A stretch of 64,000 nucleotides of DNA from NCBI RefSeq assembly GCF_947568905.1, contig NC_079171.1, positions 4,712,001 to 4,776,000 on the forward strand. Direction: 5' to 3'. This stretch comes from Ostrea edulis (Eukaryota). A model generated the notes under the pieces. The model saw nothing but the letters and a program-made list of their open reading frames with translations, searched no databases and was not told the DNA's origin. A program made the translations under genes and the position numbers. Shown piece by piece: positions 7,816-58,409 of the stretch; positions within the stretch are counted from its first letter, which is position 1; each line of letters begins with the position of its first letter.

Positions 7816-8721
7816 GGATACAGATAATGCATTTATCTTTAATCAAAGGCTTCCTTTCAGAGGAATAACAAGTTCAGTTTGCATTTCAGCTGGATTGGTC
7901 CATCGTTGACCTACTTTTTGAGAAAATAGGTCAAACTGTTTTCCCAGGCTTTTTTTTCATTATGGATACATATATTGCACTGATATATAGTCAAAGGCCT
8001 CCTCTAAGAGGAATACAACTTCAGTTTGCATTTCAACAGGATTGGTTCATCCTGACCTACTTTTGGACTAAAAATAGGTAAGTTTTTTGAGGGATTTTTT
8101 CATAACAGATACAGATAATGCCCCGATATTTAGTCAAAGGCTTCCTCTTGGAGGAAAACAAGTGCAGTTAACATTTCAGCTGGATTGTACCCTAGGGGTA
8201 AGAGTAGGTCCAACAGTTTTGCAGATTGTTTTGGTATGTTCTCAGATATTGCTCTGAAATTTAATCACAGCCCCCCTTTCAGAGAAATACATAATCAGTT
8301 CACATTTCAACTTAATTGGTGCACCATGACCTACTTTAGGGCTAAAAGTAGATCAAATGGTTTCCTGGACTTTTTATCATCATAAATAGATATTGCACCA
8401 ACATTTTGTCACAACCTCACTCTCAGTGAAAATTTAATGCACTGAAGGAAATACCTAGTAAATGACACTAGTCAGGCTAGTAGGTCGGTAAATTTGCCTA
8501 GTAATCAATCTCATTACTGAGATAGAAAGTAGGTTTACTGTCCGAAGTCTATCGGGGGCATCAAATTACGCTCGGTCAGCAGCAGTTCCCGCCATCCAGA
8601 ATATACCGCCTTCAAAGACAAAGAACTGATAAGAATTTGACCAGTTGCGTGACTTTCACCCACGGATGCAGACGTGTTGTTTTTGGTGAGTATTATTAGA
8701 ATTAGTTAATGAATCTGAGTT
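7701..8721 (+). repeat. Direct repeat copy 2 (appears identical to 1-1021)
   Basis: Direct comparison; the copies diverge after gaatctgagtt. Confidence 0.97.
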
Positions 8722-39064: not shown

Positions 39065-40570
39065 TACTCATGGACAAAAGAAACGTTACACATGAAAAAA
39101 TTATAGTAAAACAATATTTTTTCGTATAAATAAATAAAAACTTGTTTAACAACACTTCATGCTTTACTGATTACACTGGCAAACACAACAAATGTTAAAA
39201 CCTAGTCATGCGTGAATTTATCGTTGATACCCGTAAACATGGTTTCGTGGATATCGCATTGCACGTGCAAAGAAAATCATTTTCATTTTTATCAAATACT
39301 ACTCAAGGTGATTCAGGCAGTAAGAAAAACATCAAAATTTTCCAACATCTTCGCGTATTGCAATGCCCCGGCTCGACAGTTCCAGTCGCGAAAGAGCAAT
39401 TGGCATGTTGGAACTTGGAGCGTCGCAAGCCGACGTTGCACGGCGATTTGGGGTTGCAAGGATCACGATTTCTCGATTATTGCACCGTTTCAACACAACA
39501 AATTCAACAGCAGACCGCCCCCGATCTGGAAGACCTAGGGTAACAACGCCCAGGCAGGACCGCATGATACGATTACGTCATCTACGGAACAGAACGGAAA
39601 ATCCAGCAAACACTGCTGTTGGAATTCCTGGATTGCGGCGAATCAGTCGCCGAACAGTTCAACGACGTTTGTCGGCTGCAGGTCTACGTGCACGACGCCC
39701 ATACAAAGGACCTATGCTGACCCAAAGACACTGCCGAGAACGACTTCAATGGGCTCGACGTCACTTGAGATGGAGGCTTGCAGACTGGAATCACGTTCTG
39801 TTTAGTGATGAATCACGTTTCATGCTGCGCCGAGTGGATGGCAGAACACGCGTGTACCGTAGACGCGGTGAACGCTTCTCTGATGGATGTGTGCTACGCC
39901 ATGACCGCTTTGGAGGCGGAAGTGTAATGATGTGGGGCGGAATAAGTGGTAATCGACGAACAGATCTTGTACCGATCATTGGGACATTAAATGCACAACG
40001 ATACCGTAATGAAATCCTTGCACAACATGTCCGTCCCTTTATCGCTGCAAATGGCGGAATTTTCCAACAGGATAATGCGCGCCCCCACGTTGCAAGAGCC
40101 AACAGAGACTTTCTTGCCAACAATCACATCGACATCTTGCCATGGCCAGCACTTTCGCCCGATTTATCGCCAATCGAGCACCTCTGGGACCAATTAGACC
40201 GTCGAGTAAGACAACGCCGCAATCAACCGGAAACGCTTGAACAGCTTAGAACTGCTTTGCAGGAAGAATGGCAAAGAATCCCTCAGGTCTCCATCAATCG
40301 TCTCATTGCTTCTATGCGTCGTCGTTGTCAAGCTGTTATCGATAACATTGGTTCTTTCACTCGTTATTGACATTGTGAATTGAATATCCGAAGTTAACAC
40401 TTTCCGGCTTTGACTCCGTAATTTGTGTATGTTCAGATTCGGGAAACCTTAGATATTTGTTGTGTTTGAACATTCAAATTTTATTTTTTTATTCCCAAAT
40501 TATATTATATTTTCATGAAATAAAATTACAGTTATACATTTTGGTGTAACGTTTCTTTTGTCCATGAGTA
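39065..40570 (+). mobile_element. Full-length Tc1/mariner element (1506 bp) inserted in an intron
   Basis: Perfect 27-bp TIRs TACTCATGGACAAAAGAAACGTTACAC (39065-39091 and 40544-40570) with TA TSDs. Confidence 0.96.
39363..40370 (+). CDS. Tc1 DD34E transposase, intact (335 aa)
   Basis: Paired-like HTH; FSDESRF, QQDNARPH, and SPDLSPIE with 34 residues between the second D and the E. Confidence 0.97.
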   Translation: MPRLDSSSRERAIGMLELGASQADVARRFGVARITISRLLHRFNTTNSTADRPRSGRPRVTTPRQDRMIRLRHLRNRTENPANTAVGIPGLRRISRRTVQRRLSAAGLRARRPYKGPMLTQRHCRERLQWARRHLRWRLADWNHVLFSDESRFMLRRVDGRTRVYRRRGERFSDGCVLRHDRFGGGSVMMWGGISGNRRTDLVPIIGTLNAQRYRNEILAQHVRPFIAANGGIFQQDNARPHVARANRDFLANNHIDILPWPALSPDLSPIEHLWDQLDRRVRQRRNQPETLEQLRTALQEEWQRIPQVSINRLIASMRRRCQAVIDNIGSFTRY

Positions 40571-42063: not shown

Positions 42064-43154
42064 AAAAAAAAATTATCTGAATAATTGTGGGTGGGAATGG
42101 GGGTGAATTAACCATGTTAAAAAAATTTCATTTGTATTAAATTTTTCAGGCACAGACAAGAATGAATCATTTAGGCCTGGTTTTATCAACAGTTTGGAGA
42201 ATGCGGTTGCAGGATAGTGCACAAGAAAAAACCTTGAAGCTTCTAACTGAAAACCTTAAAACACAGCCTTTGGTCAAAATTACAGGTAGGAAGTAGTCCT
42301 GAGATAGAATGGTGCTATAAATTTAGCTTTATATGACCCTAATATTGAGTATACATGTATATATAATTACAGTTCTAACATTGTTGGGCTAATATTCAGA
42401 TGTATCTATTATATATATAGATGTACAATGTAGTTTCTTGTCCAAATTAAGCACGAAATATATGCGATATGTTAATGGAGTCGCATAAAGTTACATTTTG
42501 TTACTATGTTCAGATGCCCTCAAGTATTGAATTATCTGATCATTATCTACACACGGTATGTAGCCAATGCTAGTGTAGTGCCAATTAAGAATGGAATGGA
42601 AATGACAGGAAAGTTGAAGTCATCATGTTTGTCTTCAATTTTGTCCCATTTCTTATTTCAAGAAATAATCCAAGTATGAAAGGGATTTTGGCATATGTTT
42701 TGTTGATATTTTCTTTCAATGTCAATGATATGCCAGCACACTTCTTTTTAATTTTACAGGTGACAACCTTGACATTTATGTAAAAACATCGAACTTGGGT
42801 ATCGACAGAAGAAACAAAGATCTCCACCTTTTTACATCAAATGTTCTGTTCAGTAGAGTGGCAACCATTGATATGAACAATGACCCTCCAAAAACTGATC
42901 TATGCAAGGTATCAGCAGAAAACATGTTCTTGCACAACAATGATTTGCAAAGACAAAGACTTATATATGCCTATAGTGTACTGTTAGGAAGAATCTTGTG
43001 CACACTTCCTGTATTTCAAACATTCAAAAAGGCAATACCAGAGCATATTCCTCACGAGTTTATGACAAAAATGTCAGAAAGGTCCATAGTTTTACCATTG
43101 CCGATTCAGTTCAAGAATGAAGCCAAACATGAAAACTGTCTCTCTATTATGGAC

Positions 43155-43944
43155 AGTAAGGAGATCGTGTTGATGGATCGATTACATCTGGATTTGTTTG
43201 AGCAAGAGAAATGTCTCCCTAATGGCGTGGATGTCCGTCTCAGATTCAATCGCGCTCGACCCCAGTTCTACATGATGACCGCTGCCAGGAGTAGTGGGAA
43301 AGTGGTCATTCAAAGTATGATCTTGTGGGTGAGGAAAGTCAAACCTGTGCCGAGTATCATTAATCTCATCAATCAGCAACTGAGTACTCAAACGGCGAAA
43401 TATCCATTGAGACGAGTGGAAGTGAAAACCTTCACCATTCCTAGTGGCACCCAATCTAAAATCACCGATCATCTGTTTCAAGGACAGATGCCTAAACTGA
43501 TCGTGTTGGGCTTTGTGGACAATGCGGCTTTTAATGGGGATAATACCAGAAACCCCTTTCATTTCCAAAATGAGAAAGTCAAGAAATTAGAAATCAGTAT
43601 CAATGGAGAAATGATGGAAACCCGACCTTTGGAACCTAATTTCACCGACGATCAATACCTGAGATCGTATTTGAGTCTGTACAAAGGCTTGGGAAAATTA
43701 GGCCAGGACTGGGCTCCGGACATTACCCTGGAAGAGTATAAAAACGGTTACACCCTCTGGTGTGTGGATTTCACGAAAGATCAAGAAGCCCAGACGGATA
43801 AATTTCATCTCATACAGACTGGGAACTTGAGTGGAAGTGCAATTTGCCGCCAACGTGGCCAGGACCTTAAACTGTGTGGTGTATGCCGTGTTCGACAATC
43901 TGCTAGAAATCAACAAACAACGAGAAGTCAGTATCGATTACTAA
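43155..43944 (+). pseudogene. Maverick major capsid protein (double jelly-roll), N-terminally truncated and frameshifted near 43830
   Basis: [43 protein letters not shown]; the shifted frame ends [17 protein letters not shown]. Confidence 0.88.
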
Positions 43945-43953
43945 GAGAGAGAG

Positions 43954-44451
43954 ATGGATACTCAGCAATTGAGAGATGTTTTACAACGAGATTTAGGACC
44001 GGCGTTTGCAGGTGTGTATCCTCGAGATGTCATACCTGAGCTGTTACCTCATCACAAAGCCATCGTGGTGAATACAGACCCTCACGATCGCCCTGGAGCG
44101 CATTGGGTCTGTTTGTATTTGAGTAGCCCTACCGTCGAATATTTTGATTCTTACGGATTACCTCCCAGCCATAAAGACATCCAACACTTTATTCAACGCC
44201 ACGGAGAGACTTGGATTCATAACACCCATTGTTATCAAGATTTGAATACGGATGTCTGTGGACAATACTGTGTGTATTTTTTACATCAACGCCATCGACA
44301 TAGAAGCACCGTACAAGAATGGTTACTTCCCTGGAAAGGCACGGCCTTACAACGCGATCGTTTTGTGGCTGATTGGTTTAAAGAGACCTTCCGAAAACCG
44401 AGAACCCATCAAGGACAAACTTGTCAATGTCAAAGACTGAATGTATTGTAA
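43954..44451 (+). CDS. Adenain-like (C5) cysteine maturation protease
   Basis: IVVNTD....[12 protein letters not shown] and YQ....VCGQYC (His/Asp/Gln/Cys catalytic set). Confidence 0.92.
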
Positions 44452-44554
44452 ACTATGTTATTGTATTGTTATTGTTCACAGTTGGAGTTTAATAAAACGT
44501 TGGAAAAAATCTTGTGGTTTTTTTTTTTTTTTCTTGTCATTGTAATCAACCATG

Positions 44555-44596
44555 TCTTTTCAAAAAGAATGGGTAGCCCTGAAAAGGGCTGTTTTT
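44555..44596 (-). terminator. Histone-type 3' stem-loop (44575-44590) plus downstream purine-rich element
   Basis: Minus strand AAAAAC-AGCCCT-TTTC-AGGGCT-ACCCA then TTTGAAAAGA. Confidence 0.8.
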
Positions 44597-44660
44597 TCTC
44601 TCTCTCTCTCTCTGTTCTTGGTCTTTTCTCTTCTTCTTCTTCTCTCTTCTCCGTCCCCCC

Positions 44661-44957
44661 TCACTGTGTGTTCTTCTTCCTCTTTCTTCTCTTCTTTTTC
44701 TGCTCCTCCGGGGGTTGCTGGTGATCAAACACAAAAACAGGCAACCACCCGTGTTTAAAAAACACTCTCCCCGGAGGCCGCTGCACCACTTCCAACTCTG
44801 CGTCCCAGTTTTCCTCTGGCGGGGGCAGATCCTGGCTCATGGGCGGTGGGGGAAGAGCCTCCCGTGAGGCCGGCGGGGCAATCTCTCGCTCCCAATCCTC
44901 CTCCCATTTGAAACAATAATCATTCACTGTAGGGTCTGGTCCTACTCTGCGGCTCAT
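44661..44957 (-). CDS. Small acidic/Pro-rich protein with a basic C-terminal NLS-like tail
   Basis: ATG start, conserved promoter block upstream (45030-45054) and histone-type stem-loop downstream; function unknown. Confidence 0.55.
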   Translation of the reverse strand: MSRRVGPDPTVNDYCFKWEEDWEREIAPPASREALPPPPMSQDLPPPEENWDAELEVVQRPPGRVFFKHGWLPVFVFDHQQPPEEQKKKRRKRKKNTQ

Positions 44958-45144
44958 ATCTACTTCTCTGGTTCCTTAAAAAATCGGAATGCCAGATTTT
45001 TGACGTTGCGCTCGTTTAAAAAGGTGAGAGCGCGGACGTCCTTGAAAACATCCCCTACCTCAGTCAAAGATGGCGGACGTCATGTTGATGACTCATCAAA
45101 AAAACACTATATAAATAGGTCACTTGTTACCATTTTTCTCAATC

Positions 45145-45546
45145 ATGTCGTTTGAACGGTACGCGAATGATGAGAAAGATGTACTAGTGTGTGGGTATTG
45201 CCGAGGACATTGGAGAACTTGTGGCTGTTTTCATTATAAAAAAGAAAACATCCTGGCCAAACACAAGTGGATAGAGAGTTTGGCAGAGCTGAATTATTAT
45301 CCCTTTGTCTATAAATGTTGTAGTCACACTAGAGAACCCTGGCTAAAGTGTAAGTGTCCGCAGCATTGTACCATCACCCCTGAAGAAGAAATAGCGCATA
45401 AGGACTGTACCTGTGAGATCTGTCAGGAGTTTAGAGAGCGCTGGACTCGGAGAAAGTTTTATCCCCACCTGTTTCAACATTGTCCTTACAGTCAAGAACC
45501 CTGGTCAACGTGTACCTGTGAGACCTGTCAACCAGCATGTCGGTGA
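45145..45546 (+). CDS. Cys/His-rich small protein (putative zinc-binding)
   Basis: ATG at 45145 below the TATA box (about 45109); repeated CxC/CxxC clusters; stop overlaps the macrodomain start. Confidence 0.55.
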   Translation: MSFERYANDEKDVLVCGYCRGHWRTCGCFHYKKENILAKHKWIESLAELNYYPFVYKCCSHTREPWLKCKCPQHCTITPEEEIAHKDCTCEICQEFRERWTRRKFYPHLFQHCPYSQEPWSTCTCETCQPACR

Positions 45547-46034
45547 CGGATCTACGAGGAGATGTATTATCTCTACCTTGGGTGGATGCTATTGTACAAC
45601 AATGTAACTGTTTAACAGTGAAACCTCATGGATTAAGTCAACGTATTGCCGACCGATTTCCTTGGGCTAATCTGTATGCGACCCGACAACCTTTAGGACG
45701 GAGAAATTTAGCTATAGAAGCGGATCGAGGAATACCGGGTACTGTGTGTATTATGCCTCATTCTACTCATCCTGATGTGATCTGTTTGTTAGCGCAATGG
45801 GATTACGGGAGAGGCACTCAACGGTTACCCCTGTATGCCGATACCCCCGAACAACGTGAACTTTGGTTTCAACAATGTTTACAGAAATTAGACACTTTGT
45901 CTTACCAGACTTTAGCGTTTCCTTATCGTATTGGATGTGGATTAGCCGGAGGCAATTGGACTCATTATAGACAATGGATTTGTGACTTTGCTTATCAGTA
46001 TCATAAACATGTTTACATTGTCAAGAAAATGTAA
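45537..46034 (+). CDS. Macrodomain protein (TARG1/DarG/phage-like branch)
   Basis: GDVL, AIVQQCNC, GLSQRIADRFP and LAFPYRIGCGLAGGNW. Confidence 0.85.
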   Translation: MSVTDLRGDVLSLPWVDAIVQQCNCLTVKPHGLSQRIADRFPWANLYATRQPLGRRNLAIEADRGIPGTVCIMPHSTHPDVICLLAQWDYGRGTQRLPLYADTPEQRELWFQQCLQKLDTLSYQTLAFPYRIGCGLAGGNWTHYRQWICDFAYQYHKHVYIVKKM

Positions 46035-46063
46035 CTTTATTATAGCTTTATTCTAGCTATTAC

Positions 46064-46103
<40 letters not shown>

Positions 46104-46199
46104 TTATTCTGCCTACTATGTGACTTGTGTTAATAAAACTTTTAAAAAAAAAACAAAAAAAAAAACTTGTGTGTTTCTTGATTTTTGCAATAAAAAGTG

Positions 46200-46240
46200 T
46201 CTTTTCAAAAAAGTTGGTGGCCCTGAAAAGGGCCGTTTGG
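46200..46240 (-). terminator. Histone-type 3' stem-loop (46219-46234) plus downstream purine-rich element
   Basis: Minus strand CCAAAC-GGCCCT-TTTC-AGGGCC-ACCAA then TTTGAAAAGA, about 21 nt after the RING ORF stop. Confidence 0.9.
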
Positions 46241-46255
46241 TCCTAAGACCGACTT

Positions 46256-47050
46256 TCAATGCCTGGTTCCGGTAAACCGGCATAACGGGCACCGTCCCCG
46301 GGTGTGTCGCCGCTCCTCTAACTGTTCCACGCACGAGCAGCAAGCTGGGCGCTGCCCACATCCCCTACACGTGATACCGGAGTGTACCCTGTCTTGCCAG
46401 CAGACAGGGCACTTAAACCAGATAGGAACCGCCCTATCTGCCCAGCCAGGGACAGTCATAGGGTGGTTCCTCGGGGGATGACTTGCCACCGGTGCGTGGG
46501 TTGGTCTCGGTGGCGGAGTCCTCCCTGCAAACCGGATGGTAGGTGGTGGGGGTCTTGCAGGGGCTGCTGGTCTCGGTGGTGATGGTGATGACGTGTCTGA
46601 CACCAACAGCGACGGACTCTGGGCTGGGCTGGGAGGTGGTGCGGGGGACGGTGACCTCGGTGAGTACTCCACCGGTGACGCTGGTGAGTCGCTCATCGGC
46701 ACCGGGCTGTATTCCACTGGTGCCGATGGGATCGCTGGTGGTGGTGTTGTAGGCGTCGCCGGGGAGTAAGGTGGTGGTGGTGAGGGTGGCTGTGGGGCCC
46801 GTCGGCGCGGTCTCGTAGCCGTGGACATCCGAGCGGTGCGGCGGCGTCCCCTCCCTTCATACTCTGCCCGCACCCGGCAGATGATCTCACGGGCCCCACT
46901 CTGGTCGAAAGGGGAGAAGGTGCTCAGGTCGTTCTCAGAACGCACGACCCAATTCTCCCCTACCCGTTCCTCAGCCACCACTAAGAGCCGGTACCGAAAG
47001 CCAGGCAGGGTCTGAAAGTTGTAAATAGGCTCTCTTCTTCCTTCAGCCAT
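46256..47050 (-). CDS. Pro/Ser-rich protein with a C-terminal C4C4 RING-like finger (putative E3 ligase)
   Basis: CPVC-x10-CRGC-x5-CCSC-x13-CPLC; homolog at 55115-55786. Confidence 0.75.
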   Translation of the reverse strand: MAEGRREPIYNFQTLPGFRYRLLVVAEERVGENWVVRSENDLSTFSPFDQSGAREIICRVRAEYEGRGRRRTARMSTATRPRRRAPQPPSPPPPYSPATPTTPPPAIPSAPVEYSPVPMSDSPASPVEYSPRSPSPAPPPSPAQSPSLLVSDTSSPSPPRPAAPARPPPPTIRFAGRTPPPRPTHAPVASHPPRNHPMTVPGWADRAVPIWFKCPVCWQDRVHSGITCRGCGQRPACCSCVEQLEERRHTRGRCPLCRFTGTRH

Positions 47051-47602
47051 TCTTCTTTCTTCTATCTTCTTTAAAATAATGAAAAGCTGTGCTGGATCAC
47101 CAGTGAAGCGAACTGGCGAGCGCGCCGGTATATATCAGGAAAGCGCGGACCTCCTCGAAAACATCCCTCGCTTCGGAGACGAAGCCAAGATGGTGGCCGT
47201 CAAAATGGCGGATTTGTGCTTTCGAGTAGAGAGTTTTTTCTCATTGTCTTTTTCTAGACATTCGATATCTGTGCATGGTAGATTTAATCTGATAGATTCT
47301 GGGGCGCGGAATTCGTTAAACTTATTTTTATTTTGCTACGTCGCATAGTTTTCAAAGAAACAGAGGTTAAAGAGGTCGAGTCGAGGTTCAATGTTTCTTC
47401 ACCACCTCTTTAAAAATTTATTTCTCGACCATGTACATCCCTAAAAACATCTCATAAGGTCTATTCGATAGAAAACACCTTATTTGATTCGATTTTCACT
47501 CTACCTTTAGGATTTTCTGGATTCCTCAACAAATAAACCCTTCTCTGAGAGAGTCAACCAAACACAGCTTTCGTGTAAACAATTTTATTCATGTCACATA
47601 TT

Positions 47603-47959
47603 TCAAATACATAACTCCCACACACAACACCAATTCACATGTATTTTTAAAATAGGGTCCAACATTTTTTCCATTTCTCGAATCCTGCGTTGAAATCGAT
47701 ATCGATCAGCGGCTACAGTCATCCAGATACTTGTCCGGTCTTCTTCGGGTAACAGATACACTTCATTATGATCCAGATTAAAAGTTACACATTTTCTTGT
47801 ATTTTGTTGTACATGTGATGAAGATACCGCCCTCGAAGGGTGTCGATCACGCCACTGATGTGCGGCTTTGTTCTCTTTAATTCCTCGGCTACTAAATGAA
47901 TCAACACTAATGCCTCGGTGTTGATACGGTTCTCGATCAAATGTCTGCATATCCACCAA
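47603..47959 (-). CDS. PPP1R15/GADD34/ICP34.5-like PP1-eIF2alpha adaptor
   Basis: RVxF-type KCVTF followed by RTSIWMTVAADRYRFQRRI...LDPIL. Confidence 0.85.
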   Translation of the reverse strand: MVDMQTFDREPYQHRGISVDSFSSRGIKENKAAHQWRDRHPSRAVSSSHVQQNTRKCVTFNLDHNEVYLLPEEDRTSIWMTVAADRYRFQRRIREMEKMLDPILKIHVNWCCVWELCI

Positions 47960-48123
47960 TATTCGTCTAAAGTTATTGGAAATAATACCGCACGAAGATA
48001 GGATTTCAATTTTTGAAAATCTGGCAAGTTTTCTATTTCCTCAATACACTGTAGGACAAATGTTTTTTCGATGTTATCCCTAGCAGTCATGATTTCATAA
48101 ATGAAATGAATTAAGTTCTTCAC
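47785..48123 (-). CDS. Bcl-2-like helical paralog 4
   Basis: Shares the FP.TLDEY..I...L.EN....LVLI....EELKR..P pattern with its neighbours. Confidence 0.55.
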   Translation of the reverse strand: MKNLIHFIYEIMTARDNIEKTFVLQCIEEIENLPDFQKLKSYLRAVLFPITLDEYWWICRHLIENRINTEALVLIHLVAEELKRTKPHISGVIDTLRGRYLHHMYNKIQENV

Positions 48124-48487
48124 ACTTTATGTATACTTCTCGAAGCCAGTCCTTGGTGATACTTTCAATCTCGGCGGTTTTTTCAGGCATGCGTTTCTTG
48201 AATTCCTCCCCCACAACATAAATTAACATCAATCCCGCATCGTTATAGAGATTGATGTACACCCGGTTCCGTAGATCTGTATATTGGTCCAGAGTCAATG
48301 GAAACACTCCCCCTATCAGAAAATTTTTAGCGAATTGAAACACCGTATCGTCTTGCATTTTCTCGACCCATTCTAATGCATGGTTATGCGCTTTTTCTGC
48401 GATGTTGTCACTTTCAGCCATGGTTTGTAAATGACTAAAATGAATACAAGTATCCGCTTTTTCTACGATGTGGTCACTGCTGGCCAT
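48095..48487 (-). CDS. Bcl-2-like helical paralog 3 (likely ATG about 48421)
   Basis: FPLTLDQY...GLMLIYVVGEEFKKRMPEKTAEIESITKDWL. Confidence 0.55.
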   Translation of the reverse strand: MASSDHIVEKADTCIHFSHLQTMAESDNIAEKAHNHALEWVEKMQDDTVFQFAKNFLIGGVFPLTLDQYTDLRNRVYINLYNDAGLMLIYVVGEEFKKRMPEKTAEIESITKDWLREVYIKCEELNSFHL

Positions 48488-48969
48488 CCTCCAGGAATAA
48501 AGGAAAAGAAAAACGGTGAGGTTTTTTTATACACCTTTTCCAGCCAGTGATCGGTAATCGCTACAATCGCCCCAGTCTTCTCAGGTTCCCTTCGTCTAAA
48601 TTCTTGCTCCATGGTATAAATCATGATCAATCCAGACTCTCTGTTCAGGTTGTCGGCTATATGCTTGCAAACGCCGGAATATTCATATAAGGTCATAGGA
48701 AATTCCCAAAAGATCAACAACTTCATGGCGAATTTATATCTCAACGGCTGTTTTTCTTTCCAGTCCTTGATACACTGTAATGCAGCGCTACGAGCGTTGT
48801 TCACCGATTCTTTGTAGTCCTTGAAATACTGTAATACAGCGGTAAGAACATTGTTGTCCCATTCAGCCATGATGATCAAATGAAAAAAAATTCCAAAACG
48901 TTCTTGTTTTATAACAGGGCAGCCATTCCTTTCATACGAATCAGTTCCACGAATCCTTTTTGTAAACAA
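48463..48969 (-). CDS. Bcl-2-like helical paralog 2 (likely ATG about 48870)
   Basis: FPMTLYEY...GLIMIYTMEQEFRRREPEKTGAIVAITDHWL. Confidence 0.55.
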   Translation of the reverse strand: MFTKRIRGTDSYERNGCPVIKQERFGIFFHLIIMAEWDNNVLTAVLQYFKDYKESVNNARSAALQCIKDWKEKQPLRYKFAMKLLIFWEFPMTLYEYSGVCKHIADNLNRESGLIMIYTMEQEFRRREPEKTGAIVAITDHWLEKVYKKTSPFFFSFIPGGWPAVTTS

Positions 48970-49268
48970 TCGCGTAAGATCCGATCAATGTCACTCATCT
49001 GGTCTGGAAGGTTCTGTTTCAATTCCTCAGCATACAAATAAATCATGAGTAAACGTCCCGTATTGGTATTCTCCGCTAATGAATCAGCAATCCGTTGAAA
49101 ACTATGTACATTTCTGACCTCCGGTGACATCTGTTGTACAAATTGACGAGCATTTTGAATGAGAGGGTCATGTAAGGCCACGTTCATACATTGTAGTACA
49201 TAGCTATATCCATTCATTCTCGTAGTAGCACTGCCGCCCATAGTGAATAACGAACGTTCAGAAAACAC
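48909..49268 (-). CDS. Bcl-2-like helical paralog 1 with the clearest BH1-like motif
   Basis: FQRIADSLAENTNTGRLLMIYLY resembles BH1 (F..V..ELF.DG.NWGRIV.FF). Confidence 0.6.
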   Translation of the reverse strand: MFSERSLFTMGGSATTRMNGYSYVLQCMNVALHDPLIQNARQFVQQMSPEVRNVHSFQRIADSLAENTNTGRLLMIYLYAEELKQNLPDQMSDIDRILRDCLQKGFVELIRMKGMAALL

Positions 49269-49378
49269 CTGTATTTATAGGTAAAGGTTATGCATCACGT
49301 GATCAAGCACCTGCACCGCGTGATCAAGCACCTGTACGTCAGCTGGTTTCTACAGTCATTCTTGTCTGACCTTCAGTC

Positions 49379-49639
49379 ATGGATACACGGAGAGTTTTAA
49401 GAGCGAGACGCCGCCGCCAGGGAATACAACAAGTGGAGAATTTAACCATAGTAGAAGATTATGTAGACGAGATGGAGATCTGGGACAATTTAGTACAGAG
49501 ATGTCGCCATCGATTACGCTGGGGCCGATCTAAAAATTGGTGTTTTGACTATGTATTGCGGTCACATGAAACAGTGGAGGATATTTGGCTGCGTTTAAGT
49601 GACATGTACCTGAAAAATTCCCCCTCATACAGTACATGA
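49379..49639 (+). CDS. Hypothetical small protein
   Basis: ATG start; coupled to the next ORF by an ATGA overlap. Confidence 0.5.
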   Translation: MDTRRVLRARRRRQGIQQVENLTIVEDYVDEMEIWDNLVQRCRHRLRWGRSKNWCFDYVLRSHETVEDIWLRLSDMYLKNSPSYST

Positions 49640-49884
49640 TTTACCAGTTTTACACGTTATTGAACGGCACTCAAAAAGTATCGGGATTTATTCGACTGGA
49701 GAAACCACGTCACCGGAGAAGTGTATGGGTATTGTTTTGGGATGCAGACTGGATGTGGGAAACCGTCGAAGAGATACGTTTCCCCGGGAGAAGAGCTCGA
49801 CAATTAGTACAGCACATTATATCCGAAGATCATGACTTACACGTGTATATAGAAGAACCTGCGTATGAAGCCGGCCATTTTTAA
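49636..49884 (+). CDS. Hypothetical small protein
   Basis: ATGA overlap; followed by AATAAA and a degenerate histone-like stem-loop (49904-49919). Confidence 0.5.
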   Translation: MIYQFYTLLNGTQKVSGFIRLEKPRHRRSVWVLFWDADWMWETVEEIRFPGRRARQLVQHIISEDHDLHVYIEEPAYEAGHF

Positions 49885-50193
49885 AAATAAAAACTTCATG
49901 CACAGCCCTTTTTAGGCCTACTTTAAACACCAATATAAGTTCCATTCCACTAAAGTCAATGTGTACCAATGTGCACTAGCACGCGCTGGTCGCGAGAAAC
50001 CGGCTTTTCAAGTTCAATTAGTGCACTAGCACGCGCTGGTCGCGCGATGTTCTAAATGAAACCGGTTTTTCCAGAAAAAGATGGTGCAACCACGTGCTCC
50101 CCACGAGACAGAATAGTCTAGACATTTTGCTGGCTATAAAAGCGGAGCCCCAGTGTCAGTCCTCATTCGATCTTCAATCACCTTCCAGAAGAC

Positions 50194-51093
50194 ATGGCTC
50201 AGAAACAAGTAGAATTTGTGGACAAAGCTCAGAAGAAAATAGATCAGCTGGTACAGAAGCAGATGGGACCACAGAAAGACTACATTGAACTGAAGAAAGC
50301 TAAGAGTGACGATCAGAAGACTGAACTGGGGAAGACCTCGAACTTCTTGCTCAAGTCTCCAGACTACATTGCTCGACAAGAGAAGATGCCCCAGACCTCG
50401 AACCAGACCACGAGCTTCAATCTCACGCCTTCAGACTACATTGCTCGACAAGAGAAGATGGCCCAGACCTCGGATTACCTCCCTAGCCAGAATCCGACAG
50501 ACCCGGGATTAGGCTTCTATTTTCCCGATTCACAGGACGCTACGGGACTGGAACTGGGCCTCTACAACGCTCAGAATGACCCTCCGACCATGAACAAAGA
50601 AGACTTTGCGATCATTACCACGACACTAGACGGGATCGTTAACCGCATTAATGTGCTGAGTAATGAGATTGGAAATCATACCACAGTCCTACTGAAGAAG
50701 CTGGAAGAGCTGACTTCTAAAAAACCTAGGAAGGAATACACTCCAGATTACGCTGCTAACCCGTGCTACACGTGTGGAGAAACAGGACATTGGTCGCCGG
50801 ATTGCCCACAGAAAACAGATTATCCGCAGACCAGTAAGAAATCGAGGTCAGCAGATTCTCAACAGACCAGCAAGAAAACCAAACAAAAGGATCCTTGCTA
50901 CAAATGCGGAAAAATAGGACACTGGATTAGTGAGTGTCCAGAAGAACAACTGGAGATAGATGCGATGATTGGGCCCGTACCTGGCTCAAAACCCCCTGTG
51001 AAGAGAGAATACAAACCGTTAGAGATGTGGAATCCGCCCGCACCTACTGAAGAACCGCCAAAAAAGAAGAAGAAGAAACTCAGCAGAAAGTAA
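50194..51093 (+). CDS. Coiled-coil protein with two CCHC zinc knuckles and a C-terminal poly-Lys NLS
   Basis: CYTCGETGHWSPDC and CYKCGKIGHWISEC; duplicated DYIARQEKM; TATAAAA at about 50135 and AATAAA at about 51184. Confidence 0.75.
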   Translation: MAQKQVEFVDKAQKKIDQLVQKQMGPQKDYIELKKAKSDDQKTELGKTSNFLLKSPDYIARQEKMPQTSNQTTSFNLTPSDYIARQEKMAQTSDYLPSQNPTDPGLGFYFPDSQDATGLELGLYNAQNDPPTMNKEDFAIITTTLDGIVNRINVLSNEIGNHTTVLLKKLEELTSKKPRKEYTPDYAANPCYTCGETGHWSPDCPQKTDYPQTSKKSRSADSQQTSKKTKQKDPCYKCGKIGHWISECPEEQLEIDAMIGPVPGSKPPVKREYKPLEMWNPPAPTEEPPKKKKKKLSRK

Positions 51094-51419
51094 TGGACTG
51101 TGCTTGAACTGTTATGCTTATTGAACTGTTTTTATGCTTATTGAACTGTTTTGCATTGTTCTATGCTTGTACCATTGTTCTTTAATAAACATGTCAACTT
51201 AAAACCTTGTGTTATTCTTTAGATTTAATACACAGGAATACATAGAAATACACAGGATTTCATACCGATTTTCAGAAAATAGCTCCAGGAACTCACCCTT
51301 TTCCAGGAACTCAAAGCGAAAGTAGCGCATAATAGAGCTAAAATTACACCAGCGGCAATAGCCCAGCCTATTAACCCGACCTACAACCCCTGCTGGGGTC
51401 CGCAAGTTGACCCCGTCCT

Positions 51420-51541
51420 AGATATTGAACCACTCATCGACCCCCGACACCGCTTGACCAATCAAAAGCCGCCCTTGCTTGACCTCATTTGCATAAAAAG
51501 TGCACTCAGTTGAACTCCCTATCGGGAGGGCTTATACTACT
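51420..51541 (-). promoter_or_regulatory. Maverick terminal repeat / putative replication origin
   Basis: AGTAGT terminus; hairpin ctccc-tatc-gggag; octamer ATTTGCAT at 51487-51494; CCAAT at about 51459. Confidence 0.65.
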
Positions 51542-52271
51542 CCCGTTTCTTTTTATCTTACAATTTACATGACTAAAGCGTTAAACTTATTGTATGTGCT
51601 TCTGAAACAAAAGTATTAAAGTTCAGTGTGTTCATGCTCCCTGGTCCCTCTACATACAATGCACATGCAAGATGTACACTAAATGTAGTATTATCTGCCT
51701 AAAGCAGGGGTGTCATTGGATGCCATCCAACTCTTTGTTGCCAGGATTAGAACATTTTCTTTATCTAAGGTACAGATGTACATGATACTGAATAATGAAG
51801 TGTACATGTCAATACCATTGTACCTATATATAACAATTGCCAAGAAGAAAATAAAATTATTGATTTATATTTTATAACGACAATGAGGATACATGAGCAG
51901 ATCCAGCACAATAGCTTTATTAAGAATTATTTAGGGAGAGGGCTAAAATAGACTGTTTGCTGCCTGATCCCATTCACTGATTTCTGAATAAAATATTGTT
52001 TAAATAAAAATAATAAGCTACATAACCAAATAAAGAGATTATGCTGGACCTGATAAGGGAATAATTATAGTACACACAATGATACAGAATGTGTTGTGAA
52101 AGTCATCACAGGGTGTGATGTCATTTTAGTGCATACAATCAGATGAAAAACCGCACACCGTCACTTTGAACAAAGGCAAGCTTCTGAATTAATGATAAAG
52201 GATGTGTTTGAGAAATGAACTAGTTGGTTGGGTGGTTTTATTCTAATTTGGTCCAAACATCTTCTACTTAC

Positions 52272-52765
52272 CATTTCTCTATAATATGGCATTCATCAAC
52301 AACAACGGCTACCACTCTTGAGGAAAATTGCTCATCCGACAGTAGTTCGTGTCCCGTTTTTGTATTAAAGAGGGCCTCTGGATGACACATAACAATTGAA
52401 AAGTCCCCTTTCTTCACTCTTTCCACATCGACGTCACACTCTGCTACTAAATCTTCATCTGTAGTGTCTTCCACCTTGGACGCAATATCAAGTCTACAGG
52501 CACTGATTCCATGAATTTTCAATATATGAATTTGATCCTTTTGAATAATATTCAATGGTGAAATTGTCAAACAAACGGGAGTCTCCTTGCCTTCACCAAG
52601 AACTTGTGGAAGTAGGTGATATATTAGGCTTTTGCCGTAACCGACAGGCAAACTTACCAACAGATCGCCTTTCTTGTCGCGTAAATACTCGAAAGCTTGT
52701 CTCTGACAGTCTCTCAACACGATGTTCTTGTCGTAATCTTTCACGATTGAATCTAATGTTGACAT
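52272..52765 (-). pseudogene. RecQ-type SF2 helicase first exon (AcademH-like); downstream exons missing
   Basis: LRDCQ, LPVGYGKSL (motif I), ISPL, HPEAL and VVVDECH (DExH); GT donor at 52271. Confidence 0.85.
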
Positions 52766-53215
52766 TTTGTCGGATGAATAAATAAACCAAATAACACAGA
52801 CTAGGAAAATGTTTCGCAAACATATAGTTCCTATAAATATAGCGTTTTAAAAATGTTTGTCGCCTAAAATAAAACCATATTTATGTCAGAAATAAAAATA
52901 TATTACAAAAGTATTAATATAAAATCTTCGATGCAAAATCTAGGCTATATTGACATATTACAGAAATCTTGTAAAACCTGAGACGTTTACAGAGATTGTG
53001 AGCACTGTAAGGATCGACAACTCTGTATGAGAGATTGAGATCGTTAGCCAAAGACACAAATCCAGGGCGACTAATCATGATTTATCTGTATGCCGAGGAG
53101 CTCAAGAAAATCATCCCCAATCAAACCCGCGACATTGCGATCATTCTACAAGAAAGTTTACAAGAGGGGTTCATGGAGATGATGCGTTTTAACTAGTTTT
53201 CTTCATTAACAAATC

Positions 53216-53542
53216 ATGGGTGAAAGTGAAAACATCTCAGAAAAAGCGCATAAGCATGCATTAAAATGCATCGAGAAAATGCAAGACGATGGGGTGTTTC
53301 AAGCTGTTAAAAATTATCTGATATCGGGAGTGTTTCCAATTACCCTAGACGAATATATAGATCTACGGAACCATGGGTACAAGGACCTCTATAACGATGC
53401 AGGATTGATGTTAATTCAAATCGTGGGGGAGGAATTCAAGAAACGCATTCCAGAAAAAACCACCGAGATTGAAAGTATCACAAGCGACTGGCTTCGAGAA
53501 GTGTACATAAAGTGTAAAGAACTTAAATCATTTCATTTATGA
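53216..53542 (+). CDS. Bcl-2-like paralog 3, copy 2
   Basis: Strong similarity to 48095..48487. Confidence 0.6.
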   Translation: MGESENISEKAHKHALKCIEKMQDDGVFQAVKNYLISGVFPITLDEYIDLRNHGYKDLYNDAGLMLIQIVGEEFKKRIPEKTTEIESITSDWLREVYIKCKELKSFHL

Positions 53543-53853
53543 AATCATGGCTGAGAGGGACAACACAGAAAAAAATATTCGTCGGCAAGTGTATTGAGGA
53601 GGTTGAAAACTTACCAGGATTTCAATTTGTGAAATCCTATCTTCGTTCGGAAATATTTCCAATCACTTTAGACGAATATTCATGGATATGCAACCATCTA
53701 ATCGAGAACCCTATCGGCACCTCGGCCTTGGTTTTGATTCATTTAATAGCCGAGGAATTAAAGAGAACGATGCCAGACCAAACACCCCAGATCGAGACCC
53801 TCCGAGCGCAGTATCTTCACGACATGTACATCAAAATACGAGAAAATGCGTAA
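53539..53853 (+). CDS. Bcl-2-like paralog 4, copy 2
   Basis: Strong similarity to 47785..48123; ATGA overlap with the previous ORF. Confidence 0.6.
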   Translation: MKSWLRGTTQKKIFVGKCIEEVENLPGFQFVKSYLRSEIFPITLDEYSWICNHLIENPIGTSALVLIHLIAEELKRTMPDQTPQIETLRAQYLHDMYIKIRENA

Positions 53854-54014
53854 CCTTTAATCTGGACAACAATGAAGTGTATCTGTTACCCGAAGAAGAT
53901 CGAAAAAGTATCTGGATGACTGTAGCCGCCGATCAATATCGATTCCAAAGAAGAATTCAGAGTGTGGAGAACATTTTAAAACCTATCTTAGAAAAACTTT
54001 TTATTTCTTTATAA
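53682..54014 (+). CDS. PPP1R15/ICP34.5-like adaptor, copy 2
   Basis: RKCVTF and RKSIWMTVAADQYRFQRRI. Confidence 0.82.
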   Translation: MDMQPSNREPYRHLGLGFDSFNSRGIKENDARPNTPDRDPPSAVSSRHVHQNTRKCVTFNLDNNEVYLLPEEDRKSIWMTVAADQYRFQRRIQSVENILKPILEKLFISL

Positions 54015-55114
54015 GTGACATGAATAAAACATTGTTGTATGTGGCGTGAATAAAAATGTTTAAAATACATGGATTGTGTTTGTCGACTCTCTCAGAGGAA
54101 GGGTTTATTTTATTACTCAGGAGAAAAATCCTAAAAGTGGATTGACAATCAGTTAGAATAAGACGTTTTCTACTGTATTACAGGTTATTTTACTGTATTA
54201 CAGGTTATTGGACATTTTTATAGTTGTGCATGTCCGAGAAATAAATACTTTAAAGGGACTGGTTCACGAAAGAAATGTTTTTCGATTTTGATGTTAAAAA
54301 TTAAAAATATACTTCATTTAATATTGACAACCAAAATTTGGACCGTCTGAATGCAAGGATAAGAGCAATATTTTAGCTTTGATTCTCTGTTAGGTAAACA
54401 AAGACTCGAGTCTTTTTATGTAAACAAACAGATCAGTGAAACGTTAATTTTGTAATTCAAAGTATGTTCATTTTGTACAATCACAAATTTTAACTTTTAA
54501 ATGACACATTTTACCTTAAGTATACTTGAGATGTGGTATATTCAATATCCATTTATTTTGAAAACCCCGTAAACAATAACACACCCCAATCTTTGTTTTC
54601 AAAACAAATAATAAACTCTCTATAATGAGCTTATGTCATGAGGAATAACCTTAATTTTTTTGTGAATCCTTCTAAACATATTAGACTGTAGATTTTGATC
54701 ATTTAAAGTGAAAAAGAAAATTTGAAGAAAAATCGTGAATCAGTCCCTTTAAGTGTCTGTGTTAGTGGATTTCACCTCGACTCGTGCTCTTTGATCTCTC
54801 TTTCATTGAAGACTATGCCCCGTAGCAAAATAAAACTAAGCTTAACGAATTCAGCGTCTCAGAATCTATCAAATAAAACCCTCAATTCAGAGAAATCGAA
54901 TGTGTAGAAAAAGAAAATGCGAAAAAACTCTCTTCACGAAAGCACAAATTAGCCATATTGACGGCAGCCATCTTGGCTTCGTCTCCGAAGCGAGGGATGT
55001 TTTCGAGGTCTGCGCTCTCTCGTTATATACCGACGCTCTCGCCAGTTCGCTTCACTGGTGATCCAGGAACTACAAGATTTATTTTGAGAAGATTCGAAGA
55101 ATTGAAGAACAACA

Positions 55115-55786
55115 ATGTCGACAACCAGTATGGTCTTTGCCACCTTACCGGGGATCAGATACCGGTTGCAGCTCGTTACCGAGCGGAACAATTGGTGGGG
55201 ACTGGGTAATCATGAGCACCCGGGAATTGGGGCAGTTTAGTCCTCTTGATAGGGCGGGGGCTATGGAGCTCGTCAATCAAGTGCGGCGCCGTTACGAGCG
55301 CCCTGGACGGGGTGCATCCGCTGTAGGACAGCGCGCATGTCCACCACCCCCAGTCAACAGACAGTCCATCGCAGCCCGGACCCTCGGAACAGCCCTCGCC
55401 ATCGATACTAGAGGGGTACTCGCCCTCACCGATGTCCCCGCAGCCGCCCACTAGCCCGAGAGCGAGTCTGGAAGAAGTGGTACCCCAAACACCCACACCC
55501 CCGTCAACCCCTGTGAGACCCCGGGCACAACGTCGCGGTGCCGTTCGTATCCTTCCACTACACCGGCATCAGCAGGACCACCGACAGAACACGAGACCGT
55601 CGTCCCGGGGTGGGCAGATCGATTACCATCGATCTGGTTCACCTGCCCCATCTGTCTGCAAGACTCCAAACACTCGCAGTTAAGAGTGCAGCCACTGTAA
55701 ACAACGGGCAGTGTTCTGCGAGTGTGGTCCAGCTGGAGGGAGGAAGATACAGCCGGTGCCCCCTCTGCAGATTCATCGGCGTGTAG
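55115..55786 (+). pseudogene. Pro-rich RING protein, copy 2, frameshifted
   Basis: TLPGIRYRL, FSPLDRAGA, WFTCPIC and RCPLCRF fall in different frames. Confidence 0.78.
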
Positions 55787-55809
55787 AAAGGCACAGCTAC
55801 AGAGCAAAA

Positions 55810-55850
55810 CCCCACGACCCTTTTAAGGGCCACCCACATCTTTGAAAAGA
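55810..55850 (+). terminator. Histone-type stem-loop (55816-55831, one mismatch) plus downstream element
   Basis: GACCCT-TTTA-AGGGCC-ACCCA then TTTGAAAAGA. Confidence 0.78.
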
Positions 55851-56184
55851 TGGTGTTTATCACAATGATTGAGAAACGTACACAAATTAACACCAGTAGC
55901 ACTTTATTTACTACCAAACACATGATTATGTTTTAATGACAATATACACTTGTTTATCATACCTACAAACAAAATCATGAATAAATTGTCTGTAATGACT
56001 CAAATTTCCTCCCGCTAAGCCACACAAATATATAAAATCTTAATTTAAAAACACAAAAACAAGGAATTATGATCAATACAATGAAATAAACACTCACGTT
56101 TTGTATAACAGACGGTATATACGATTTGGTAGACATTGTGGACGAGTCTGAAAGAATTTACGATAATAATATTTGTAAGTCTCC

Positions 56185-57700
56185 AGGAAGAGGTGTTTGC
56201 TGTAAGGGAATTCAGAAAAGGGGACTTTCTCCTTGAGTACAAGGGAAAGCTGTGCCGTAGTGACCCTGGCTACGGCACATACATGTTCCGAGTTCCAACT
56301 GAATGGGAAAGATTATTGGTATGTTTTGATTGTTACATTATGCTCAAGAGCCATAAAGACCGTCATGAGGAACAAAGACCAACTGGTATGCATATTTTTG
56401 TTTGGTATTTGCATAAACCGTAGCGAGGATTTTCTTTCATATGATTAATATCATATTGTTTTTGGCATTAGATGATAGAAGACAACCCAGCAGAAGAACG
56501 GGGTCCCCTTATCGAGGAGATAGATGAGGAGATAGATGAGGAGATAGACGAGGAGGAAGAGAATGTAATATGCATTTATTGATAGTTTCCCCCCAGTTCT
56601 GTGCATGTTACATTTCATCAGGGATGATTTTATACACAGTTCTGTGCATGTTACATTTCATCAGGGATGATTTTATACACAGTTCTGTGCATGTTACATT
56701 TCATCAGGGATGATTTTATACACAGTTCTGTGCATGTTACATTTCATCAGGGATGATTTTATACACAGTTCTGTGCATGTTACATTTCATCAGGGATGAT
56801 TTTATACACAGTTATGTGCATGTTACATTTCATCAGGGATGATTTTATACACAGTTATGTGCATGTTACATTTCATCAGGGATGATTTTATACACAGTTA
56901 TGTGCATGTTACATTTCATCAGGGATGATTTTATACACAGTTATGTGCATGTTACATTTCATCAGGGATGATTTTATACACAGTTATGTGTATGTTACAT
57001 TTCATCAGGGATGATTTTATACACAGTTATGTGCATGTTACATTTCATCAGGGATGATTTTATACACAGTTATGTGCATGTTACATTTCATCAGGGATGA
57101 TTTTATACACAGTTATGTGCATGTTACATTTCATCAGGGATGATTTTATACACAGTTATGTGCATGTTACATTTCATCAGGGATGATTTTATACACAGTT
57201 ATGTGCATGTTACATTTCATCAGGGATGATTTTATACACAGTTTTATTACATTTTCCAGCCGTCAATTTCAACATGCCAAACACCAAGCCATGGAAGACG
57301 GACGTTTACCGAGGGAGAGGGTGGCGTCATCGAAGCATTCTGCCAGTAAGGAATTTAGCATACATGTTGAAATAAAACTTGTCTTCAATGAATATGTCTA
57401 GTGTGCTGAGATTAACGCAACATCAATTTTTGTAGACGACTGCAGTCATAACACATCACAAGGTGGTGGACCGACTGTCCAGGACGGAGGAGGGGAGGGC
57501 CATAATCCACCGTTTGGAAGTGGCAGATCCAAGCGATTGGAGGAAGAGGCTAGCAGATCGGGTGAGGACTGCAAGGAGAAGGAGAAAGTAAGTGATAATG
57601 AAAATATTTGAAAATAATTGATTGATTTATTGCATTTAAAACAAATTTGTTATTTACTTTTCAGGTGAAGACCCGACTGCTAGTGGCTCTGTGGAGTGTT
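56185..57700 (+). pseudogene. Spliced gene remnant beginning with a SET-domain-like fragment
   Basis: VFAVREFRKGDFLLEYKG resembles the SET N-terminus; short acidic exons follow; no NHS motif found. Confidence 0.35.
56594..57243 (+). repeat. 43-bp minisatellite, about 15 copies
   Basis: cagtt(c/a)tgtgcatgttacatttcatcagggatgattttataca; early copies have c and later copies have a. Confidence 0.98.
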
Positions 57701-58005
57701 TATCTGGATCGGAAATGGTCCGCTCCGTTTCTTTCTAATTTGATAGGGCTAGGGGGAGTGTTTATCGGGGGCGGAAATGGTCCGCTCCGGGTTTTTTTTT
57801 TATTGTGATAGGGCGAGGAAGGAGTGTTTATCGGGGGCGGTAATGGTCCGCTCCGGGTTTTTTTTTTATTGTGATAGGGCGAGGAGGAGTGTGTATCGGG
57901 GGCGGTTGTTTATTGGGGGCGGAAATGGTCCGCTCCGTTGTGTTTTTTTTTAATTTGATAGGGCGAGGGGGAGTGTTTATCGGGGGCGGAAATGGTCCGC
58001 TCCGT
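57695..58005 (+). repeat. GC-rich about 60-bp repeat, about 5 copies
   Basis: ggagtgtttatcgggggcggaaatggtccgctccg reiterated with T-rich linkers. Confidence 0.85.
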
Positions 58006-58409
58006 TTTTTAAAAAAAATATTTTACATTCTTCAAATTTTGTACAGCTATTATGAAAGCATTGTAGATGTACATGTGTGTGATCAGACATTCTTTGAAAT
58101 ACTTGCCTGTGCATGATGTAGTTGAACTTCCATCACTTAAAATGTCATATTCCAGTAAATAATATAGTTAAATACATTGAGCAAATCTGATTTACTTTGT
58201 GATGTTTTATTTGAAACTGACAATATAAATACTCAATACAGAAGTCGATAGCATTAGAAATTTATCTTCAATGATTCATGATAATCTAGTTCTGTTTACT
58301 ATATCATTGAAAAATTACCTTTTACTTCTCTACTGGGTATATGTCAACAAGGCCATTATAACTTTGAGAAAATCTACATGATGAGAGAAAGAGAAGTAAA
58401 ACAATACAG

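Follow-up and report, generated by a model that had tools for sequence, protein, structure and literature searches.

SCO6735 of Streptomyces coelicolor is a thymine/uracil- and protein-ADP-ribose hydrolase for which Gln85 is essential (PMC9411070, PMC13036486, each consulted in part). According to the parts of PMC9411070 that we consulted, Gln85 is equivalent to Lys84 of TARG1 and Lys80 of DarG, the Q85A substitution abolishes the activity on DNA and on protein, N27S and G128E also lose activity, Lys34 and Lys89 matter for the activity on DNA, and water-mediated hydrolysis was proposed as the mechanism; Val/Ile25 is named there as specific to SCO6735. Uracil-linked ADP-ribose on RNA is reversed by SCO6735, TARG1, and DarG (PMC13036486, in part). 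The well-studied macrodomains of viruses are those of the MacroD class in RNA viruses, and antagonism of PARP-based immunity has been described for RNA-virus macrodomains in the sources consulted in part. Wsv206-like proteins of nimaviruses were already noted as macro domains (PMC7016691, in part). The ALC1-like class, the Gln chemistry, and the presence of macrodomains in large invertebrate and giant DNA viruses are thus known.

In the present study, we analysed a stretch of 64,000 nucleotides from the oyster Ostrea edulis (NC_079171.1, positions 4,712,001 to 4,776,000; hereafter the window) and followed up an original prediction of an intact macrodomain gene in a Maverick. We found that the gene is intact, that it lies in the accessory region of a Maverick, and that the Maverick itself is a truncated remnant of 8.4 kb (43125-51541), with a GC content of 44% against 31-35% in the flanks. 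The features of the remnant are as follows.

43125..43941, + strand: piece of the major capsid gene, about residues 1-197 missing, frameshift near 43830
43954..44451, + strand: adenain-type cysteine protease, open, 165 aa (Pfam Peptidase_C5, E 2.4e-4; 21.3 bits, equal to the cut-off)
44661..44957, - strand: 98-aa accessory ORF with a basic C-terminal tail; no family found
45145..45546, + strand: 133-aa accessory ORF rich in Cys and His, just before the macrodomain gene; searches of Pfam, NCBIfam, and PHROG gave no match
45537..46034, + strand: macrodomain gene (Gln-type, ALC1-like), 165 aa, intact
46256..47050, - strand: 264-aa proline-rich ORF, convergent with the macrodomain gene; no Pfam match; homologue in the second copy
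47603..47950, - strand: PP1 catalytic-subunit-binding protein (Pfam PP1c_bdg, E 2e-7; 31.4 bits against a cut-off of 26.1)
47785..49241, - strand: four tandem paralogous ORFs of 101-135 aa; mutual identity 30-37%; no Pfam family
50194..51093, + strand: 299-aa ORF with two CCHC zinc knuckles (Pfam zf-CCHC, E 2.1e-15)
51440..51541, no strand: probable right terminus; CCAAT and octamer-like boxes, then (ACT)2 at 51536-51541

The element is a truncated Maverick, as it has a gene for a double jelly-roll capsid protein, an adenain-type protease, and an (ACT)2 end. The capsid piece is 98% identical to the 'F54H12.2-like' proteins of O. edulis; compared with one of the full-length O. edulis capsid proteins (P0256), it is 96% identical to residues 198-429 in one frame and 100% identical to residues 431-467 in another, and further upstream its reading frame runs into unrelated DNA. 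As a PDB sequence search with the fragment gave nothing at E<=10, the capsid was identified through its homologues and their fold: P0256 has a double jelly-roll, with the Sputnik, iridovirus, PBCV-1, and mavirus capsids as best matches (E about 1e-16 to 1e-14). No paper linking 'F54H12.2' to a capsid was found in the literature searched. Like known Maverick/Polinton elements, the remnant has the capsid gene followed by the protease gene, accessory genes next to the core module, and (ACT)2 as end motif, all as in vertebrate Mavericks (PMC8097293, in part). In contrast to these elements, just 8.4 kb is left, the capsid gene is broken, and the polymerase, integrase, ATPase, minor capsid protein, and left end were not found. 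Pfam scans of 35 ATG ORFs and of 104 ORFs read from stop to stop gave no match to a polymerase, Maverick integrase, or ATPase; the latter ORFs were taken from 156, the rest of which were in the ATG scan, before 13.5 kb, or in alternative frames over identified genes. The single integrase match, at 25.9 kb, adjoins a retroelement RNase H, no ORF of the remnant is long enough for a protein-primed polymerase, and no left end or inverted-repeat partner of the right terminus was found in the window. Since the capsid, too, goes undetected by Pfam, small pieces of core genes could escape such scans. The polymerase, integrase, and ATPase genes may lie in other copies of the element. About 10 kb upstream of the remnant is a 200-N assembly gap (32541-32740).

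Several accessory ORFs gave further information. The 133-aa ORF is preceded by a TATA-like box about 37 nt upstream, and its end overlaps the start of the macrodomain ORF by 10 nt. The C-terminal Cys cluster of the 264-aa ORF resembles a RING finger by eye only. The PP1-binding protein, which we take to be 'GADD34/ICP34.5-like', is encoded in both Maverick copies (see below) and is a candidate for counteracting the shut-off of translation.

The macrodomain ORF has neither stops nor frameshifts and is of full length compared with its relatives. In the homologue search, 125 of 143 candidates matched at E<=0.001. The closest (P0001; 96% identity over 100% of the length) came from a 935-nt ENA contig and has 12 member sequences; among the matches listed, three named homologues from Saccostrea cucullata are 55-60% identical, and the others (120 of the 125 were listed) are mostly unnamed, at 31-74% identity. 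A first family alignment comprised the window protein and 98 of the 120 listed homologues, picked for near-full length. A search with its profile gave 8,934 clusters (formed at 50% identity) at E<=0.001, including 868 at E<=1e-30. This large family is mostly missed by Pfam, which detected Macro in 14 of the 99 alignment members and no family at E<=1 in the window protein; NCBIfam likewise found no family in it. The sole match in PHROG was phrog_335, annotated 'phosphatase' (E 3.9e-10). The number of homologues, the quality of the structural model, and the profile matches in the PDB all agree that the similarity to macrodomains is not due to chance.

The AlphaFold2 model of the window protein had a pLDDT of 94.8 and a pTM of 0.90, and judging from this model, the protein has the macro alpha/beta/alpha fold with near certainty. 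The profile matched 13 distinct PDB sequences at E<=0.01, all 13 of the ALC1-like class, including BT1257, SCO6735, Poa1p, two DarG proteins, and TARG1; MacroD proteins were absent from these 13. In the VIA structure comparison, the best match was BT1257 (2FG1; 2AFC is the other entry; Z 17.4, rmsd 2.8, 149 aligned), followed by Poa1p and DarG (both 16.6; 5M3E and 5M3I gave 16.6 and 16.5), TARG1 (15.6; 15.2-15.6 for 4J5S), SCO6735 (5E3B; Z 15.5, rmsd 2.6, 138 aligned), and ALC1 (Z 14.5, rmsd 2.8, 145 aligned). Rows 1-18 were all of the ALC1-like class, and MacroD rows stood from rank 19 down with Z of 13.9 or less; the best alphavirus MacroD domain had a Z of 13.7. Foldseek by itself put an alphavirus domain at rank 5, with lower TM-scores. 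As rows within 1 Z unit of each other were taken as tied, the structure settles the class and not the subclass. The window protein belongs to the ALC1-like class of BT1257, SCO6735, Poa1p, DarG, and TARG1, not to MacroD. The viral MacroD domains (alphavirus nsP3 and coronavirus Mac1) share with it the macro fold (Z up to 13.7) and presumably the principle of undoing ADP-ribosylation by the host, but they belong to another class, are 10-15% identical, and are those for which, unlike the window family, immune antagonism has been described.

The original prediction had placed the protein on the TARG1/DarG side, apart from MacroD, by its IGCGLAGGNW motif (residues 132-141). The class was borne out by the Z values (17.4 for BT1257, 16.6 for DarG, and 15.6 for TARG1 against 13.7 for the alphavirus domain), but the loop is of another form than assumed. 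The phosphate-binding loop of the window protein, IGCGLAGG-W, is that of SCO6735 and BT1257, whereas the four DarG sequences have LG(C/S)G(N/L)GGL-W. The absence of a macro fold, on which the prediction had offered to be given up, was not observed, as the model at pLDDT 94.8 reached Z 17.4 to 2FG1. A GD motif (G8-D9) and the glycine-rich loops are conserved in the family, and from these motifs the window protein is predicted, with high confidence, to bind ADP-ribose.

Residues were counted in an alignment that combined 288 domains of the family with 57 from bacteria and phages and four from DarG. The family domains came from 302 non-capsid proteins, 14 of which were left out for length or split domains, and the DarG domains were taken from plasmid genes adjacent to DUF4433. 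The key residues of the window protein are Q22, N24, Q87, G133, and G135. In the column of Q87, which lies in the LLAQW motif (residues 84-88), Gln was found in all 288 family rows and in 54 of the 57 bacterial and phage rows, and Lys in all four DarG rows; as most bacterial rows were picked by the IGCGLAGG pattern, their loop conservation is by construction. N24 was conserved in 275, G133 in 280, G135 in 277, and Q22 in 282 of the 288 family rows, and Q22, N24, C25, G32, L33, and Q87 are near-invariant across these divergent sequences. In the profile alignment, the family Gln falls on chain position 105 of SCO6735, which corresponds to Gln85 after an offset of 20 tag residues counted by hand; in Poa1p, the residue aligned there is not Gln.

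The comparison with SCO6735 and BT1257 thus yielded shared and different residues. Shared are the Gln at the position of the catalytic Lys, the equivalent of Asn27 (N24), and the loop, with Gly126 and Gly128 of SCO6735 corresponding to G133 and G135. However, identity is 19% to SCO6735 and 21% to BT1257, and the window protein falls in a separate clade. It reads QQCNC..HGLS where these two have H(V/I)CND..KGF, contains an additional conserved segment at about residues 47-68, and comes from a eukaryotic viral context. Of the differing positions in SCO6735, His24 corresponds to Q21, Gly87 to D89, and the two lysines that matter for DNA, Lys34 and Lys89, to H31 and G91; next to these are K29 and R92 (Lys or Arg at 92 in 225 of the 288 rows), in loops whose alignment is uncertain. 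In place of the Val/Ile25 of SCO6735, the window protein has Q22, as do the 282 family rows. Compared with DarG and TARG1, class and fold are shared, and with DarG also the conserved Asn, but the catalytic Lys (K80/K84) is Gln in the window family and the phosphate-binding loop differs; Pfam scans moreover found no C-terminal DarG domain in the window protein and no DarT gene nearby.

It had been cautioned that LLAQW stands where DarG and TARG1 have their catalytic Lys, and that substrate and mechanism may therefore differ. The Lys is indeed absent from the family. But because the family Gln coincides with Gln85 of SCO6735, where Q85A abolishes activity, its loss points to a known alternative chemistry rather than to a dead enzyme; judged from the alignment, the Lys-to-Gln change is a hallmark of the Gln-type branch and no sign of lost function. 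By analogy, we infer that the window protein works like SCO6735, yet outside the SCO6735 subclass.

For the phylogenetic analysis, IQ-TREE was run on 60 rows: the window protein, 32 family members (14 of them drawn at random), 23 bacterial and phage sequences, and four DarG sequences. The family and three proteins from metagenome-assembled genomes (MAGs) split off at 100/99, and the SCO6735-like and DarG sequences each grouped at 100/100. An AU test gave p 0.005 against grouping the window protein with seven SCO-like rows, a constraint that also pulls it from its own relatives. FastTree on 350 rows agreed, with a family clade of 290 rows (support 99) that contained four MAG proteins. Neither tree contained TARG1, ALC1, Poa1p, or wsv206. 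With E. coli YmdB as the root, a branch 3.8 long made the tree uninformative. In these trees the clade of the window protein is distinct from those of the SCO6735-like and DarG sequences. The phylogeny that the original prediction had proposed as a check thus gave no grouping with DarG, but a giant-virus protein (P0401) is in the family by sequence.

This protein, a fusion with uracil-DNA glycosylase (UDG) from Marseillevirus LCMAC101 (A0A481YRS7; TM 0.83, 36% identity), and a nimavirus wsv206-like protein (TM 0.87, 27% identity) were the best viral structural matches in BFVD. The relatives from nimaviruses and giant viruses (Marseillevirus LCMAC101 and pithovirus) belong to large DNA viruses, whereas the window gene stands alone in a Maverick. 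The top Atlas cluster for another homologue (P0003) was 75% viral, mostly Nucleocytoviricota, with the phylum known for eight members. The family is likely to be largely one of eukaryotic viruses, as far as its few named members indicate. Matches in phages (103 of 50,697 records; 26.5-27.7% identity among the matches listed) and in GTDB (at least 58 loci; the best near-full-length one at 36% among the matches listed) were distant, and a recent bacterial or phage origin was rejected on these grounds. A scan of 31 ORFs neighbouring the four MAG loci found no match to DarT, PARP, or NADAR.

Of the longer relatives, 34 of 49 have a UDG domain. All 34 form one clade (support 93) with the window protein outside, and fusion by many independent events was rejected; they count as one event. 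PIF1 fusions were found in P0127 and P0374, an AlkB-type oxygenase in two of 14 relatives scanned, and SNF2 (P0419), a reverse transcriptase (RT), an integrase, and a weak NADAR match in others. The partners, mostly nucleic-acid enzymes, suggest a lead rather than proof. Three decapod proteins (P0385, P0403, and P0414; Homarus, Cherax, and Procambarus) contain this macrodomain interrupted by some 30 inserted residues and group with P0388 in one clade; Pfam found no match in these long proteins, which are possibly virus-derived or domesticated.

The gene is best explained as one of the accessory genes of a Maverick (polintovirus) lineage in oysters, encoding a putative stand-alone ADP-ribosyl hydrolase from a Gln-type, apparently largely viral subfamily of ALC1-like macrodomains. 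We give an even chance to the proposal that its product, as a Gln-type hydrolase, takes ADP-ribose off thymine or uracil bases or acidic residues and thereby shields the element against ADP-ribosylation by the host. Taken separately, hydrolase activity is predicted as fairly probable, nucleic-acid bases are possible substrates at slightly less than equal odds, and the putative role in counter-defence is evenly balanced. By extension from SCO6735, ADP-ribose would bind in the cleft, where the IGCGLAGG loop would clamp the diphosphate; Asn24 would orient Gln87, which would position the distal ribose, and an ordered water would cleave the glycosidic bond without a covalent intermediate on Lys. 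The likely substrates would be thymine- or uracil-linked ADP-ribose on DNA or RNA and Glu-linked ADP-ribose on proteins. In an active element, the protein may remove host-added ADP-ribose from the DNA, transcripts, or proteins of the element, and with the adjacent PP1-recruiting protein it may be part of a cluster for counter-defence or genome protection. We counted against this explanation the low identity to SCO6735 and BT1257 (19-21%), the separate clade, and the several changed SCO6735 residues, and also the single UDG event that leaves the window protein outside.

The macrodomain of ALC1 is regarded as a binder and is not known as a hydrolase. A protein of this kind would be a non-catalytic reader of ADP-ribose or poly(ADP-ribose) that binds and shields its targets, or inhibits a transferase by binding, with no hydrolysis. 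The structural match to ALC1 (Z 14.5), the SNF2 helicase fused in P0419, and the annotation 'SNF2 subfamily' on three of the top 12 BFVD rows fit such a reader. The near-invariance of Q22, N24, C25, G32, L33, and Q87 suggests instead an active site under constraint, hydrolases (DarG, TARG1, and SCO6735) are among the top structural matches, and the view of ALC1 as a pure binder is general background. In favour of a reader, a Gln85-type residue is also conserved in ALC1 homologues, which we also counted against hydrolysis, and inactive SCO6735 still inhibits DarT (both from PMC9411070, in part). On balance, we regard a reader as unlikely.

We also considered a housekeeping enzyme of replication or repair that clears O-acetyl-ADP-ribose, ADP-ribose-1''-phosphate, or PARP marks at repair sites and has no anti-immune role. 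Poa1p, which is annotated for such metabolites, ties for the top structural match at Z 16.6 but lacks the Gln; UDG, AlkB, and PIF1 are repair enzymes, but the window gene is fused to none and lies among accessory genes of the host-interaction type, such as the PP1-binding ORF. The 'phosphatase' annotation of phrog_335 and a phage relative near a nicotinamide phosphoribosyltransferase gene speak for housekeeping, which we hold to be improbable, the hydrolase of a mobile element being preferred.

Downstream of the right terminus, the following features of a second copy were found.

53041..56024, no strand: second, inverted, decayed copy, about 80-85% identical
53041-53853, + strand: paralogue ORF array of the second copy; no Pfam match
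53682-54014, + strand: PP1-binding gene of the second copy (Pfam PP1c_bdg, E 5.7e-9)

The second copy keeps the order of paralogues, PP1-binder, RING-like gene (frameshifted), and macrodomain, of which the last 31 codons are left (55932-56024, - strand; 68% amino acid identity). As neighbours and order are kept, the macrodomain gene travels with the element, and its location in the accessory region was observed in both copies. Between the copies, pN was 0.18 against a pS of 0.45 over these 31 codons; the dN/dS estimate based on pN and pS was 0.30, and those of three neighbours were 0.42, 0.50, and 0.85. These values hint weakly at selection on the accessory genes; the 31 codons and the one neighbour at 0.85 were among the points counted against our reading. 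Between the two Maverick copies is a DEAD-helicase fragment (52268-52765), and just beyond the second copy are about 21 tandem units of 43 bp (56465-57366) and GC-rich repeats of 60-80 bp (57685-58011).

An intact ORF beside a broken capsid gene could mean that the oyster host kept or domesticated the macrodomain; the 96%-identical protein on the 935-nt ENA contig, with its 12 member sequences, and the related domains of decapod proteins named as host genes are in keeping with this. However, the remnant is young: full-length capsid proteins of O. edulis match its capsid piece at 96-100% identity, and open frames are likewise kept by the protease and every other accessory gene, so that an intact macrodomain ORF calls for no special explanation. 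The second copy, moreover, has lost most of the gene. Domestication is very unlikely, and the copy in the window is a passenger in a dead element. After the macrodomain stop is a run of about 34 A at about 46068-46101, flanked by a 9-nt direct repeat (46047-46111), which is possibly a tiny retro-insertion or an expanded microsatellite. As the second copy has no A-run there, retroposition of the macrodomain gene is not supported.

A second mobile element in the window also carries a candidate eraser of nucleic-acid ADP-ribose.

1652-6684, - strand: LINE; ORF1 (5458-6684, 408 aa) with a C-terminal NADAR domain (Pfam, E 3.5e-20)

Its ORF2, for an endonuclease-RT, is at 2586-5399, and the final part follows in another ORF (1652-2527). 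According to PMC11125620 (in part), which does not mention transposons or retroelements, ADP-ribosylation of guanosine is reversed by NADARs. The NADAR of the LINE fits a picture of defence by nucleic-acid ADP-ribosylation. Identical direct repeats of at least 300 nt (1-300 and 7701-8000), 7.7 kb apart, bracket the LINE and an RT fragment (7038-7790); they are likely an LTR element or a duplication with the LINE inserted within. An intact Tc1/mariner-type transposase ORF of 335 aa (DDE_3, HTH_Tnp_Tc3_2) is located at 39363-40370 (+ strand).

In the open-access literature searched, at the level of main texts and abstracts, no paper reported a macrodomain together with a Maverick or Polinton. 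The main texts of PMC8502044, PMC11131425, and PMC8097293 on Polintons and Mavericks do not mention a macrodomain, and the papers listed on Polintons and ADP-ribosylation contained nothing on such macrodomains in the titles and openings of their abstracts. DNA-virus terms were absent from the portions consulted of the reviews PMC7729036, PMC8120803, and PMC10221186. No biochemical work on the window family was found in the literature searched, nor activity data for wsv206-like or giant-virus macrodomains, on which PMC7016691 (in part) was the one paper found. The subfamily thus appears uncharacterised, and its presence in a Maverick appears unreported in that literature. The same search found no test of antagonism of PARP-based immunity by ALC1-like macrodomains of eukaryotic DNA viruses, so we infer such antagonism, as in the original prediction, only by extension for the window family.

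The weight of the finding is limited by the macrodomains already annotated in invertebrate and giant DNA viruses and by the dead element in which the window copy lies. Nevertheless, the domain is Gln-type and ALC1-like, unlike the well-studied MacroD domains of RNA viruses, and the protein, small and well folded, is open to direct assay. Should it prove to erase base-linked ADP-ribose, it would provide a handle on whether thymine/uracil ADP-ribosylation is used in animals, a question raised in PMC12879935 and PMC13036486 (in part). If the counter-defence role is true, Mavericks carry counter-defence genes as true viruses do. It is a doubtful, speculative step further that the Mavericks of oysters have an enzyme dedicated to erasing ADP-ribose from thymine or uracil bases, a member of a large family common to giant viruses and nimaviruses. 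If that were so, invertebrate and protist hosts would ADP-ribosylate invading nucleic acids, in a eukaryotic counterpart of the DarTG defence against phages, and mobile elements would answer with erasers.
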